Position numbers and translations under genes: made by a program. From a virus (Duplodnaviria; Heunggongvirae; Uroviricota; Caudoviricetes), in IMG/VR virus record IMGVR_UViG_2695420658_000002: 17,661 bases of DNA; one strand, written 5' to 3'. Below are positions 3,296 through 17,661 of this stretch, in pieces (within the stretch, counting starts at the first letter, position 1; each line of letters begins with the position of its first letter). Below the pieces are notes generated by a model that had not been told where the DNA came from, made no database searches, and was given only the letters and a program-made list of their open reading frames with translations.

Positions 3296-5911
3296 CGTCC
3301 ACCTCCGGAGAACAGGCCACCATCACGCATCTGTGTCTGAATTTCATCACGGGCACCCTTGCGGGCCATGTCATACACGGCCTTCATCATCTGTGGACCT
3401 GGCAGACCATTCGTACCGTCGTTCTGAATCACCACGTGATTGTTCTGATTAAAATTAATGCCTTCAGCCCGCCGCATCTGCGCCGGACTTCCGGCACCGC
3501 CCACATAACCACCTTCCGCATAGCCGCGCATCAGCCGGTAGAGATTCCCCACGCCAATCCGGCTGGTTGCCTCCTTCGTGAAGACAAATTCACCACGGTG
3601 AACAATCCCCGCTGGCTCATATTTGCCGCCGGTTCCCGTAAATCCCCCGGTTGCAAAATGGAATTTCACCGCAGCGGCCTGAATGGCTGTACCACCTGAC
3701 GCGGATGCGCCGCCACCAACAGCCCCGCCAATGGCGCTGCCGATACTCCCGACAATCCCCACCATTGCCTGCTTAAGCAGAATTTCTGTCATCATGGACA
3801 GCACGGAGCGGGTGAAGCTGCGCCAGTTCTGTTCACTGCCGGTCAGCATCGCCGCCATATTCTGTGCAATACCATCAAAGGTCTGCGTGGCTGCACTTTT
3901 AACCTGTGACATACTGTCCGTGGCGCTCTCTTCCCACTCACTCCAGCCGGACTTCAGGCCTGCCATCCAGCTCCCGCGAAGCTGGTCTTCAGCCGCCCAG
4001 GTCTTTTTCTGCTCTGACATGACGTTATTCAGCGCCAGAGGATTATCGCCATACTGTTCCTTCAGGCGCTGTTCCGTGGCTTCCCGCGCTGCCTGCCGGT
4101 CAGTCAGCCCCCGGTTTTTCGCATCAATGGCTGCCCGTTTTGCCCGTTGCTGCTGTGCGAATTTATCCGCCTGCTGCGCCAGCGCATTCAGGTGCTCCNN
4201 NNNNNNNNNNNNNNNNNNNNNNNNNNNNNNNNNNNNNNNNNNNNNNNNNNNNNNNNNNNNNNNNNNNNNNNNNNNNNNNNNNNNNNNNNNNNNNNNNNNN
4301 NNNNNNNNNNNNNNNNNNNNNNNNNNNNNNNNNNNNNNNNNNNNNNNNNNNNNNNNNNNNNNNNNNNNNNNNNNNNNNNNNNNNNNNNNNNNNNNNNNNN
4401 NNNNNNNNNNNNNNNNNNNNNNNNNNNNNNNNNNNNNNNNNNNNNNNNNNNNNNNNNNNNNNNNNNNNNNNNNNNNNNNNNNNNNNNNNNNNNNNNNNNN
4501 NNNNNNNNNNNNNNNNNNNNNNNNNNNNNNNCTTCACGCCGGACTGTTTCGGCTTTTTCAGCGTCGCTTCATAATCCTTTTTCGCCGCCGCCATCAGCGT
4601 GTTGTAATCTGCCTGCAGGATTTTTCCGTCTTTCAGTGCCTTGTTCAGTTCTTCCTGACGGGCGGTATATTTCTCCAGCGGCGTCTGCAGCCGTTCGTAA
4701 GCCTTCTGCGCCTCTTCGGTATATTTCAGCCGTGACGCTTCGGTATCGCTCTGCTGCTGCGCATTTTTGTCCTGTTGACGCTGTTGATCTACCCTCTTTT
4801 GGGCTGCATCCCGCTCCAGGCGTTTTTTTTCACGATCATCCCAGTAACGCGCCCGTGCTTCATCGTTAACGAAATAATCATCCTTGCGCAGATTCCAGAT
4901 GTCGTCTGCTTTCTTAAACGCAGCCTCTGCCTTAATCAGCATCTCCTGCGCGGTATCAGGACGACCAATATCCAGCACCGCATCCCACATGGATTTGAAT
5001 GCACGTGCAGTCCTGTCTGCCCAGGTCTCCAGCGTGCCCATGTTCTCTTTCAGGCGGCGGGTCTGGTCATCAAACCCTTTCGTTGCGGCCTCGTTCGCCG
5101 CCTGCAATGCCCCGGCTTCATCGCCGGAACGCTGCAACTGAGCAACATACGCAATCTGCTCCGCCGTCACGTTATGGAACTGGCGTGCCATCGCCGTCAG
5201 CCCCGACGTCGGGTCTGTGGTCAGCTTCCCGAAGGCTTCAGCGACCTTGTCCACCTCCACGCCGGATGCATAGGAGAAACGCGCCACACTCTGGCTGATG
5301 GACGCAATCTGAGCCTCACCGCTTACCCCCGCCTTAACCAGTGCGCTGAGTGACTCGCTGGTCTGGTTAAACGTCAGCCCTGCCGCCTGCCCGGCTCTGG
5401 ACAGGACCAGCATACGATCTGCCGTCAGTCCCGCCTGATTACCGGAAAGGACCAGCGTTTTGTTGAAATCGGACAGGGTTGAGTTGCCCTGATACCAGGC
5501 ATACGCCAGCGCACCGGTCGCCACCGCCAGCGAGGTGGCCCCCACCATCGGCAGGGTGATCGCGCCGGCAAGCCCCCTGAACATGGGGATCATCCCGCCG
5601 AAGGAGTCCTTAACCTGACCACCCTGTTGCAGCAGGATCAGCCAGGGATTCTGCCCCCCTGCAAGCTGCGTGGCCACGTCGGTGAACTGTGCAGGCAGCA
5701 TACGCATGGCGGCTTTATACTGCCCGACGGAAATCCCCGCTTTCTGTGCAGCCAGCGCCTGTCGGCTCAGCGACTGTTCAACGACTGCCGCTGTTTTTTT
5801 CGCATCACTTTCCGTACCGGAAAAATGACGCCTGACTCTGGCCATCTGCTCGTCAAATCTGGCCGCATCCAGACTCAAATCAACGACCAGATCGCCTACC
5901 GGTTCAGCCAT
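3292..5911 (-). CDS. H: Tail tape measure protein H, interrupted by a 333-nt N run; reading frame differs across the run
   Basis: N-terminal 460 codons (5911-4532) begin MAEPVGDLVVDLSLDAARFDEQMARV...; the C-terminal segment (4197-3292) reads EHLNALAQQADKFAQQQRA...MSEQKKTWAAEDQL...GGLFSGGGR. Both are recognisable as lambda gpH. H start overlaps the T stop by 8 nt, as in lambda. Confidence 0.8.
4199..4531. other. Masked/unknown sequence (333 N) inside gene H
   Basis: Run of n characters in the sequence. Confidence 1.
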
Positions 5912-12035: not shown

Positions 12036-15716
<3,681 letters not shown>

Positions 15717-15742
<26 letters not shown>

Positions 15743-16262
15743 TCAGCAACCCCGGTATCAGTTCATCCAGCGCGGCTGCTTTGTTCATGGCTTTGATGAT
15801 ATCCCGTTTCAGGAAATCAACATGTCGGTTTTCCAGTTCCGGAAAACGCCGCTGCACCGACAGGGGGATCCCGTCGAGAATACTGGCAATTTCACCTGCG
15901 ATCCGCGACAGCACGAAAGTACAGAATGCGGTTTCCACCACTTCAGCGGAGTCTCTGGCATTTTTCAGCTCCTGTGCGTCGGCCTGCGCACGCGTAAGTC
16001 GATGGCGTTCGTACTCAATAGTCCCTGGCTGGAGATCTGTCTCGCTGGCCTGCCGCAGTTCTTCAACTTCCCGGCGCAGCTTTTCGTTCTCAATTTCAGC
16101 ATCCCTTTCGGCATACCATCTTATAACGGCGGCAGAGTCATAAAGCACCTCATTACCCTTGCCACCGCCTCGCAGAACGGGCATTCCCTGTTCCTGCCAG
16201 TTCTGAATGGTACGGATACTCGCACCGAAAATGTCAGCCAGCTGCTTTTTGTTGACTTCCAT
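15717..16262 (-). CDS. Nu1: Terminase small subunit Nu1 (N-terminal HTH, binds cosB)
   Basis: 181-aa ORF recognised as lambda gpNu1 (MEVNKKQLADIFGASIRTIQNWQEQGMPVLRGGGKGNEVLYDSAAVIRWYAERDAEIENEKLRREVEEL...). Confidence 0.92.
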
Positions 16263-16284
16263 TGTTCATTCCACGGACAAAAAC

Positions 16285-16400
16285 AGAGAAAGGAAACGAC
16301 AGAGGCCAAAAAGCCCGTTTTCAGCACCTGTCGTTTCCTTTCTTTTCAGGGGGTGTTTTAAATAAAAACATTAGGTTACGGCGAAGAAGAACGGAAACGC
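16285..16400. promoter_or_regulatory. cosB: terminase (Nu1) binding region with three R-element repeats and an intervening AT-rich IHF-type bend segment
   Basis: Three copies of the CGTTTCC/GGAAACG core: agaaaggaaacgacag at 16287-16302, ctgtcgtttcctttct at 16328-16343 (inverted), cgaagaagaacggaaacg at 16382-16399; AT-rich segment at 16350-16378. Layout matches lambda cosB R1/R2/R3 as I recall it. Confidence 0.75.
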
Positions 16401-16408
16401 CTTAAACC

Positions 16409-16977
16409 NNNNNNNNNNNNNNNNNNNNNNNNNNNNNNNNNNNNNNNNNNNNNNNNNNNNNNNNNNNNNNNNNNNNNNNNNNNNNNNNNNNNNNNNNNNN
16501 NNNNNNNNNNNNNNNNNNNNNNNNNNNNNNNNNNNNNNNNNNNNNNNNNNNNNNNNNNNNNNNNNNNNNNNNNNNNNNNNNNNNNNNNNNNNNNNNNNNN
16601 NNNNNNNNNNNNNNNNNNNNNNNNNNNNNNNNNNNNNNNNNNNNNNNNNNNNNNNNNNNNNNNNNNNNNNNNNNNNNNNNNNNNNNNNNNNNNNNNNNNN
16701 NNNNNNNNNNNNNNNNNNNNNNNNNNNNNNNNNNNNNNNNNNNNNNNNNNNNNNNNNNNNNNNNNNNNNNNNNNNNNNNNNNNNNNNNNNNNNNNNNNNN
16801 NNNNNNNNNNNNNNNNNNNNNNNNNNNNNNNNNNNNNNNNNNNNNNNNNNNNNNNNNNNNNNNNNNNNNNNNNNNNNNNNNNNNNNNNNNNNNNNNNNNN
16901 NNNNNNNNNNNNNNNNNNNNNNNNNNNNNNNNNNNNNNNNNNNNNNNNNNNNNNNNNNNNNNNNNNNNNNNNNNNNN
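16409..16977. other. Masked/unknown sequence (569 N); expected location of cosN and the cos-proximal region beyond it
   Basis: Run of n characters; by lambda spacing (Nu1 start about 190 nt from the cohesive end) cosN would lie near 16440-16465. Confidence 0.9.
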
Positions 16978-17020
16978 TCGTGCAGACTACGCCCCCTCAT
17001 ATCACATGGAAGGTACTACA

Positions 17021-17461
17021 ATGGCTCAGGTTGCCATTTTTAAACAAATATTCGATAAAGTGCGAAATAATTTAAACTATCACTGGTTTTNNNNNNNNNN
17101 NNNNNNNNNNNNNNNNNNNNNNNNNNNNNNNNNNNNNNNNNNNNNNNNNNNNNNNATTTACTATTTAGCCACAGAGAATATTCATCTTGTTCTTGAAAAC
17201 GATAATACGGTTTTAATAAAAGGACAGGGTAAGGTTGTAAATGTAAGATTTTCAAAAAATAAATGCCTTATAGAAGCCACCTTAAAAGGATTCAAATCAG
17301 GAGAGTTATCATTTTACGAATACAGGAAAAATCTTGCTACAGCAGGGGTTTTCAGATGGATTACAAATATCCACGAAAACAAAAGGTATTACTATACCTT
17401 TGATAATTCATTACTCTTTACTGAGAACATACAGAACACTACACAAATATTTCCGCACTAA
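17021..17461 (+). CDS. Hypothetical protein, AT-rich moron-like cargo ORF beyond cos; possibly a DUF1398-type (YbcV/YdfO-like) prophage protein
   Basis: ATG at 17021 with GGAAGG 7 nt upstream (the track's ATG at 17006 has no Shine-Dalgarno); frame open to TAA at 17459-17461; markedly lower G+C than the structural genes; interrupted by a 65-nt N run. The family assignment is from memory of similar prophage proteins and is weak. Confidence 0.55.
17091..17155. other. Masked/unknown sequence (65 N) inside the AT-rich ORF
   Basis: Run of n characters. Confidence 1.
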
Positions 17462-17469
17462 ATCATAAC

Positions 17470-17498
17470 GTCCGGTTTCTTCCGTGCCAGAACCGGAC
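17470..17498. repeat. Inverted repeat (8-bp stem GTCCGGTT/AACCGGAC, 13-nt loop) just 3' of the AT-rich ORF
   Basis: Seen directly; no U tract follows on the plus strand, so it is not a canonical intrinsic terminator. Confidence 0.4.
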
Positions 17499-17506
17499 TC
17501 GCTGGC

Positions 17507-17661
17507 ATGATGAAATATGTGTACCCGGTAACCCCGGTGTGCATCGTTTTTGATTATTCCCGCACACTCGCGCAGAAGGAGTTCCCCGTCGGGCTACGGT
17601 CTCTGTTAATACGGGAATACGGCGACGATTGGATTTGCCCCTATATTTCCAGACATCTGTT
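17507..17661 (+). CDS. Partial ORF of unknown function, runs off the high-coordinate window edge
   Basis: ATG ATG at 17507-17512, then 51 codons without a stop (MMKYVYPVTPVCIVFDYSRTLAQKEFPVGLRSLLIREYGDDWICPYISRHL); no clear Shine-Dalgarno; product not recognised. Confidence 0.3.
   Translation, partial: MMKYVYPVTPVCIVFDYSRTLAQKEFPVGLRSLLIREYGDDWICPYISRHL

Follow-up and report, generated by a model that had tools for sequence, protein, structure and literature searches.

The AT-rich open reading frame (ORF) near the end of the window, by which the whole analysed stretch of 17,661 nucleotides is meant, is a real but ordinary gene. Judging by sequence comparison, it is a prophage copy of the DUF1398 family, whose members include p78 of lambda, YbcV of DLP12 and YdfO of Qin. 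The original prediction had tentatively suggested this identity, and it was confirmed by Pfam, by the structure 2HH8 and by the RefSeq annotation of matching DNA. The 101 unmasked C-terminal residues match the Pfam family PF07166 (DUF1398) with 103 bits (cutoff 22; E=1.4e-29) over profile positions 29-119 of 119, and the protein restored from relatives matches E. coli YdfO (PDB 2HH8) with E=3e-67. The best DNA matches are 99.8% identical and annotated as "DUF1398 domain-containing protein" (WP_000079508.1). NCBIfam returned no family for the DUF1398 protein. The family is already known, and the window copy is near-identical to catalogued members at the usual place. The finding is ordinary because a known family member was found where it is expected, with 99.8% identity to genes across E. 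coli genomes.

In a megablast search, 4,267 of 5,426 complete E. coli genomes (about 79%) gave a match, at a median of 2 and a maximum of 11 places each; matches covering at least 80% of the query region were found in 1,122 of the 5,426. The same gene occurs in the temperate phages PhiR49_1 (99.7% identity) and lambda (82%), and 30 copies outside prophages were located in Escherichia, Shigella, Citrobacter, Kluyvera, Pseudocitrobacter and Salmonella. The clade that could be reached from the window sequence comprises Enterobacteriaceae only. Homologues number in the thousands, and the sequence restored from relatives contains no stop in this frame, so the objections that the original prediction had named as refuting it do not apply. 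Lambda carries a member of this catalogued family, K-12 has three, and about four fifths of the E. coli genomes give a match, so the window copy itself matters little. DUF1398 as a family is of modest wider interest, being among the most widespread lambdoid accessory genes, with a structure available since 2006 and a conserved genomic slot.

The open frame at 17006-17461 on the + strand has 151 codons when read from its first ATG and 146 when read from the one at 17021. The G+C content of its unmasked bases is 31.1% (GC3 31%), whereas the remainder of the window has a mean of 56.9 ± 2.8% and a minimum of 48.7% across 1,533 N-free segments of 376 nt, which bears out the predicted sharp drop. 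At the composition of the ORF, a stop is expected every ~12 codons, and 124 stop-free codons would arise by chance with P of about 3e-5. The observed open length was reached by only 8 of 5,000 shuffles, and the remaining five frames of 17156-17461 contain 7-9 stops apiece. The first 23 codons, which are unmasked, are in frame and identical to those of the relatives. Between the restored gene and four paralogues, dN/dS ranges from 0.18 to 0.37, and the five sequences show zero indels. By these sequence measures, the DUF1398 gene is under purifying selection.

As claimed in the original prediction, the second ATG has a good ribosome-binding site, since the Shine-Dalgarno-like GGAAGG at 17008-17013 (+ strand) ends 7 nt before the ATG at 17021. 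This motif is conserved in every prophage spacer compared, as well as in lambda, DLP12 and Qin, and the RefSeq start in the relatives (MAQV) corresponds to the same ATG. The five in-frame codons from the upstream ATG (MEGTT; 17006-17020, + strand) belong to a longer form reported by some gene callers (P0001). They are probably untranslated because no Shine-Dalgarno sequence precedes the ATG at 17006.

The predicted product length of 146 amino acids (AA) had to be corrected. The 65-nt N run within the ORF, which had been noted correctly, lies at 17091-17155 and masks codons 24-35. In the relatives, whose flanks are 99.6-100% identical on both sides, 35 nt (ATTCTGAACTAAAACGTCACAATGTCTCACATTAC) take the place of the 65 Ns, and codons 24-35 of near-identical relatives read YSELKRHNVSHY. 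The run is 30 nt longer than the relatives' sequence, and as this excess is a multiple of 3, the frame is kept. The coding sequence at 17021-17461 (+ strand, including the stop) has a length of 411 nt or 136 AA in all relatives, and YdfO, YbcV and lambda p78 have 136 AA each. Therefore, the product has 136 AA, and the value of 146 is an artefact of the N-run length.

The window covers the late region of a lambda-like prophage with its late genes on the - strand. It starts inside the tail-fibre-side genes, with tail protein I at 950-1618, and a run of 333 N at 4199-4531 lies inside the tape-measure gene. The tape-measure gene is followed by portal, capsid, terminase A (13817-15742, - strand, from the ORF list) and the small terminase subunit Nu1 (15717-16262, - strand). 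The DUF1398 gene is on the + strand and divergent from Nu1 and terminase A, in agreement with the claim that it points away from the structural operon. A cosB-type region at 16263-16408, which is collinear with the left end of lambda, lies between the Nu1 start and a run of 569 N at 16409-16977. Positions 15500-16408 are 98.5% identical to the relative L001. The equivalent of the 569 N in relatives is 490 nt long and contains cosN (AGGTCGCCGCCC), cosQ-side sequence and a ynfO/ylcI (DUF3950) gene of 77 codons on the + strand (PF13132, E=5e-21). The ORF had been placed just beyond cos. The region is correct, but the gene is not directly adjacent to cos, as ynfO/ylcI intervenes in the relatives. 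For both masks, the N-run length differs from the sequence it replaces in 99-100%-identical relatives (569 versus 490 nt and 65 versus 35 nt).

The near-identical relatives show the complete arrangement of this region. Terminase A and Nu1 on the late strand are followed by cosN, then on the opposite strand by ynfO/ylcI, a spacer of ~60 nt and the DUF1398 gene, and on the late strand again by a KilA-N gene, Rz, R and S. The ynfO/ylcI gene is located upstream in all close relatives (L001, L002, L016, L023-L028), for instance at 2753-2986 in L001 and L002; it was also mapped at 200-394 in lambda (L003) and at 4252-4446 in L015. The lysis genes are seen in L001 and L002 and in the window would fall beyond an IS2 element and the window end. 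The window ORF occupies the same cassette position between cos/Nu1 and the lysis-gene side, opposite to the late operon, and Qin of K-12 has exactly the layout of the relatives (nohA / ynfO-ydfO). The contents of the slot vary, with ynfO-ydfO in Qin, ylcI-ybcW-ybcV-borD in DLP12 and ylcI'-p79-p78-bor in lambda. Stx-type prophages carry DUF1398 genes of 24-28% identity in the same slot and on the same relative strand, beside different small and large terminases. This fits the predicted variable cargo between lysis genes and terminase. In L025, a 99%-identical cassette lies beside a TerL of only 66% identity. Since distant members adjoin different terminases and a near-identical cassette accompanies a divergent TerL, the slot position appears to be old and modular.

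The combination of a small upstream gene, a ~60-nt spacer and a larger downstream gene resembles a toxin-antitoxin or abortive-infection pair, in which YnfO/YlcI would be the antitoxin or repressor and the DUF1398 protein the toxin. A ynfO 3'-end remnant is attached to DUF1398 even in lambda, DLP12 and the chromosomal ycgX loci, and YnfO has a weak HicB-like PHROG match (E=0.007). Its N-terminus resembles a ribbon-helix-helix by eye, but this assignment was dropped as neither Pfam nor PDB sequence searches supported it. The pairing is not obligate, and a toxin-antitoxin system is therefore considered very unlikely: ylcI was found neither at the Stx-type locus L008 nor in the 30 chromosomal DUF1398 loci, and in lambda and DLP12 the pair is split by p79/ybcW. 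Moreover, over-production of YdfO was feasible for the NMR work, and a strain deleted for ybcV is available. At the Stx-type loci L020-L022, the gap upstream of DUF1398 contains no called gene.

A second way of linking the two genes would be a programmed read-through of the ynfO TGA, which would join YnfO and DUF1398 into one protein. L001, Qin, L025, L027 and L028 have a spacer of 60 nt that is in frame and stop-free, and the window type is among the lineages in which the TGA and the DUF1398 ATG share a frame (2984-3046 in L001, 4988-5050 in L016 and 16978-17023 in the window). A public protein collection contains such fusions, with W in place of the TGA (P0014, 761 members). However, the spacer measures 59, 61 or 64 nt, and is thus out of frame, in L002, L023, L024, L026, lambda, DLP12 and the ycgX loci, and a stop-free in-frame spacer of 19 codons is estimated to occur by chance in roughly 1 in 8 cases. 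W at the TGA is expected from genetic-code-4 gene calls on short AT-rich contigs, and the fusions in the databases look like an artefact of such gene calling. As the lineages differ in spacer length modulo 3, the read-through fusion was rejected as scarcely credible.

The two genes of the cassette also differ in divergence. Across the first 49 codons of ynfO/ylcI, dS is about 0.05 among lambda, DLP12, Qin and the window type, while the adjacent DUF1398 gene has dS values of 0.36-0.67. These values suggest that the segment next to cos is kept uniform either by recombination or by a constraint on its DNA sequence (cosQ side).

The unmasked 3' part of the ynfO-to-DUF1398 spacer (16978-17005, + strand) is 100% identical to PhiR49_1. 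The ~60 nt before the DUF1398 ATG, including the last ynfO codons and GGAAGG, are conserved in lambda, DLP12, Qin and the relatives. A -10-like hexamer, GATAAT, is conserved in the prophage copies, and its equivalent position in the window is just upstream, inside the mask. In L001, it is part of a promoter-like site with 9 of 12 matching positions (TAGACC-16-GATAAT) located 42 nt upstream, although such sites are no more numerous than in shuffled sequences. Downstream of the gene, no terminator-like site was found. The ORF had been called typical of horizontally acquired moron genes, and its atypical composition (31% versus 57% G+C), a trait of morons as described by Hendrix, and its position agree with this. 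An own promoter or terminator could not be shown, and the label therefore relies on composition and position.

The DUF1398 gene is followed by a conserved non-coding stretch with 54% G+C (17462-17629), which is homologous to the p78-bor intergenic region of lambda. A hairpin in this stretch lacks a T-tract and, with z = -0.85, falls short of significance. Rfam gave no family for the equivalent stretch of L001, and its only hits, two miRNA matches at chance level, were in the cosB repeat. Homology to all relatives ends at 17629, and the last 32 nt of the window (17630-17661) are the terminal inverted-repeat end of IS2. A 62-nt query from the window end matched in 3,779 of the 5,426 genomes, at sites annotated as 'IS3-like element IS2 family transposase'. 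The end of the window inside IS2 suggests a contig break at a repeat. The element lies 168 nt beyond the stop codon of the DUF1398 gene, close to the position that the bor promoter has in lambda.

The chromosomal copies were used to search for a partner of the DUF1398 protein. The 86 neighbour ORFs from the 30 chromosomal loci share no Pfam family, and the commonest one, GGDEF/MASE4, accounts for 4 of the 86. As no family is common to these neighbours, the DUF1398 protein needs no dedicated partner. A fimbrial or adhesin function by association was considered after three of the first four chromosomal look-ups and failed across the 86 ORFs of the 30 loci. The copies in L012, L017 and L019 adjoin chaperone-usher fimbrial or AIDA-type autotransporter operons.

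Another explanation for the persistence of the gene would be single-gene phage defence or superinfection exclusion, with the prophage DUF1398 protein blocking competing phages, a role that many genes of prophage accessory slots have. This would be in line with the retention of the gene by most E. coli prophages, with its dispensability for the phage itself, with the orphan fold of its product and with an accessory slot that also holds bor and, in lambda, the defence-interacting p79. However, PADLOC-DB 2.0 contains no matching defence family, as the best hit, Csx23, is at chance level (E=0.023, 12.7 bits); YnfO had no match there either. In addition, the thirty chromosomal copies outside prophages have unrelated neighbours, and no exclusion phenotype is ascribed to the three K-12 copies in the literature examined. 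Phage exclusion is therefore regarded as unlikely.

The gene product could also be taken for a virion or packaging component, following the labels 'head protein' and 'putative envelope protein' found in databases. The match to PHROG 413, which bears the label 'head protein', is strong (E=2.7e-87), and the gene adjoins cos and terminase in every lambdoid phage examined. However, it is antisense to the late operon and is retained in the head-less cryptic prophages Qin and DLP12 and at chromosomal sites outside prophages. CRISPRi on lambdap78 left plating unchanged with an EOP of about 1-2, in agreement with older deletion data (PMC10695390), and the gene is thus non-essential for lambda plaque formation. 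No experiment behind the labels was found. The restored protein has 16.3 kDa, a pI of 9.4 and 16% aromatic residues, and its maximum Kyte-Doolittle 19-residue mean of 0.39 indicates neither a transmembrane segment nor a signal sequence. Both labels lack an apparent basis, since the protein is soluble, has no membrane-spanning segment and was solved by NMR. They should not be trusted, and a role in the virion is highly improbable.

The fold of the family is known from YdfO, whose solution NMR structure (2HH8) was solved in 2006. In the AlphaFold2 (AF2) model, the secondary structure consists of two repeats of alpha-alpha-beta-beta-beta in the same arrangement as in 2HH8, while the repeat signal at the sequence level is weak. 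With an alignment of 21 close homologues alone, the model reached a pLDDT of 47, and adding members of 23-47% identity mended it. Searches of the PDB and BFVD revealed no meaningful structural neighbour beyond 2HH8. The positions that are near-invariant down to 21% identity are L32, T46, N48, A103, G104 and Y119 (P0001 numbering) together with aromatic residues, and as a set they do not look like a catalytic constellation. W108 likewise counts among the conserved residues.

The literature on expression describes several conditions under which family members change. The ydfO gene is induced 12-117-fold by imidazolium ionic liquid, in exponential phase only (PMC4077768). Mutation of pdhR lowers the divergent genes ybcV and ybcW about 10-fold, and a PdhR site lies in the spacer between them (PMC7660256). 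For the paralogue ycgX, de-repression was seen in an hha/ydgT mutant, and its control was reported to depend on Hha/YdgT but not on H-NS/StpA (PMC3686432). Upon over-expression of T4 MotB, which its authors connect with a change in H-NS repression, ybcV rises more than 1000-fold (PMC7827196). This value is not clean because the strain used, BL21(DE3), also contains lambda DE3, whose p78 is 98.5% identical and whose late genes are induced, and it may be due to cross-mapping or antisense read-through. Furthermore, ybcV is elevated in a sabinene-adapted strain, and an in-silico multi-tool survey from 2025 could infer no function for ycgX. In the literature examined, neither a direct demonstration of H-NS binding to a DUF1398 gene nor a phenotype of any family member was found.

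Two reported properties of ydfO were discounted. YdfO over-expression is said to protect against oxidative stress with reference to Wang et al. 2010 (PMC4077768). The cited paper (PMC3105296) studied yfdO from CPS-53 and does not contain ydfO from Qin, and the claim is therefore a mix-up of the two names. No other published statement on a function of YdfO was found. This mix-up has since been repeated, for example by PMC8711792, which cites Frederix 2014 for ydfO. The description of ydfO as essential by TraDIS only is likely an artefact of mapping or of insertion bias in a gene that is AT-rich and present in several copies.

Taken together, the DUF1398 protein is conserved, under selection, cytoplasmic and independent of a partner, and its gene lies in a segment of foreign composition and runs antisense to the late transcript. 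We propose, with a probability of roughly 0.7 for the overall picture, that this is an accessory gene which is read in the lysogen, silenced by default, released by stress and acts through binding. As the second gene of the two-gene ynfO-ydfO cassette in the cos-to-lysis slot, opposite to the late strand, it would be transcribed in the lysogen from a weak promoter of its own, as bor is in lambda. The similarity to bor is inferred from its antisense orientation to the long late transcript and from its being far more AT-rich than its surroundings. Xenogeneic silencing of the H-NS/Hha type would normally keep expression low, and particular stresses would de-repress the gene. The 16-kDa, basic, aromatic-rich cytoplasmic product would then most likely act alone by binding a host or phage macromolecule. 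Because catalytic-type residues are not conserved and the fold has no relatives, the product is most likely a binding protein rather than an enzyme; it is not expected to be a virion part or an envelope protein either. A more far-reaching and rather doubtful extension would regard the family as a hitherto overlooked class of stand-alone lysogen effectors, small and basic and with an orphan pseudo-symmetric fold, which bind host or phage nucleic acid or protein and confer a benefit such as phage exclusion or stress re-wiring. If this were true, it would explain why the cos-lysis slot retains these genes in nearly every lambdoid prophage, even at 24% identity.

Database searches with this gene are affected by contamination. 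About 30 'genomes' of unrelated phyla (L031-L051, L053, L062-L065) contain a 100%-identical Rz-bor-p78-p79 segment of lambda, either within contigs of roughly 3.5 kb or as the terminal part of contigs of roughly 48.5 kb. These carriers include Pseudomonas, Kitasatospora, Brevibacillus, Flavobacterium, Pedobacter, Bradyrhizobium and an Arcanobacterium 'plasmid' of 3,566 bp. The 3.6-kb control strand used in Nanopore sequencing covers exactly this Rz-bor-p78-p79 end of lambda. The segments are contamination by lambda control DNA, which also accounts for the many frameshifted DUF1398 proteins on ENA contigs of ~3.5 kb. Reports of ynfO/ylcI/DUF1398 in Arcanobacterium and in a fungus are probably due to the same source.

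The closest known counterpart in layout is Qin, where YdfO (b1549; PDB 2HH8) has 81% nucleotide identity to the window type (dS 0.67) and likewise follows ynfO. The downstream genes differ, with gnsB/ynfN in Qin, the KilA-N gene and Rz in the close relatives of the window, and IS2 in the window itself. Lambda p78 and DLP12 YbcV share with the window gene the family, the length of 136 AA, the strand relative to the late genes and the conserved 60-nt leader with GGAAGG, at a nucleotide identity of 83-85%. However, both carry an opposite-strand gene, p79 or ybcW (p79 at 559-765 of L003, - strand), between a truncated ylcI of 64 AA and the DUF1398 gene, which is then followed by bor, whereas the window type has neither p79 nor bor. 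The p79/ybcW gene has been reported to activate the 'Vulcan' NADase defence system, and lambda mutants escaping Vulcan delete p79 by recombining with Qin, which results in the ynfO-ydfO layout also found in the window. Like the lambda morons of the bor/lom type, the DUF1398 gene is accessory, located antisense in the late region, atypical in composition and dispensable for lytic growth. In contrast, Bor belongs to the outer-membrane lipoproteins, and both its promoter and its phenotype (serum resistance) are known, whereas the DUF1398 product is cytoplasmic.
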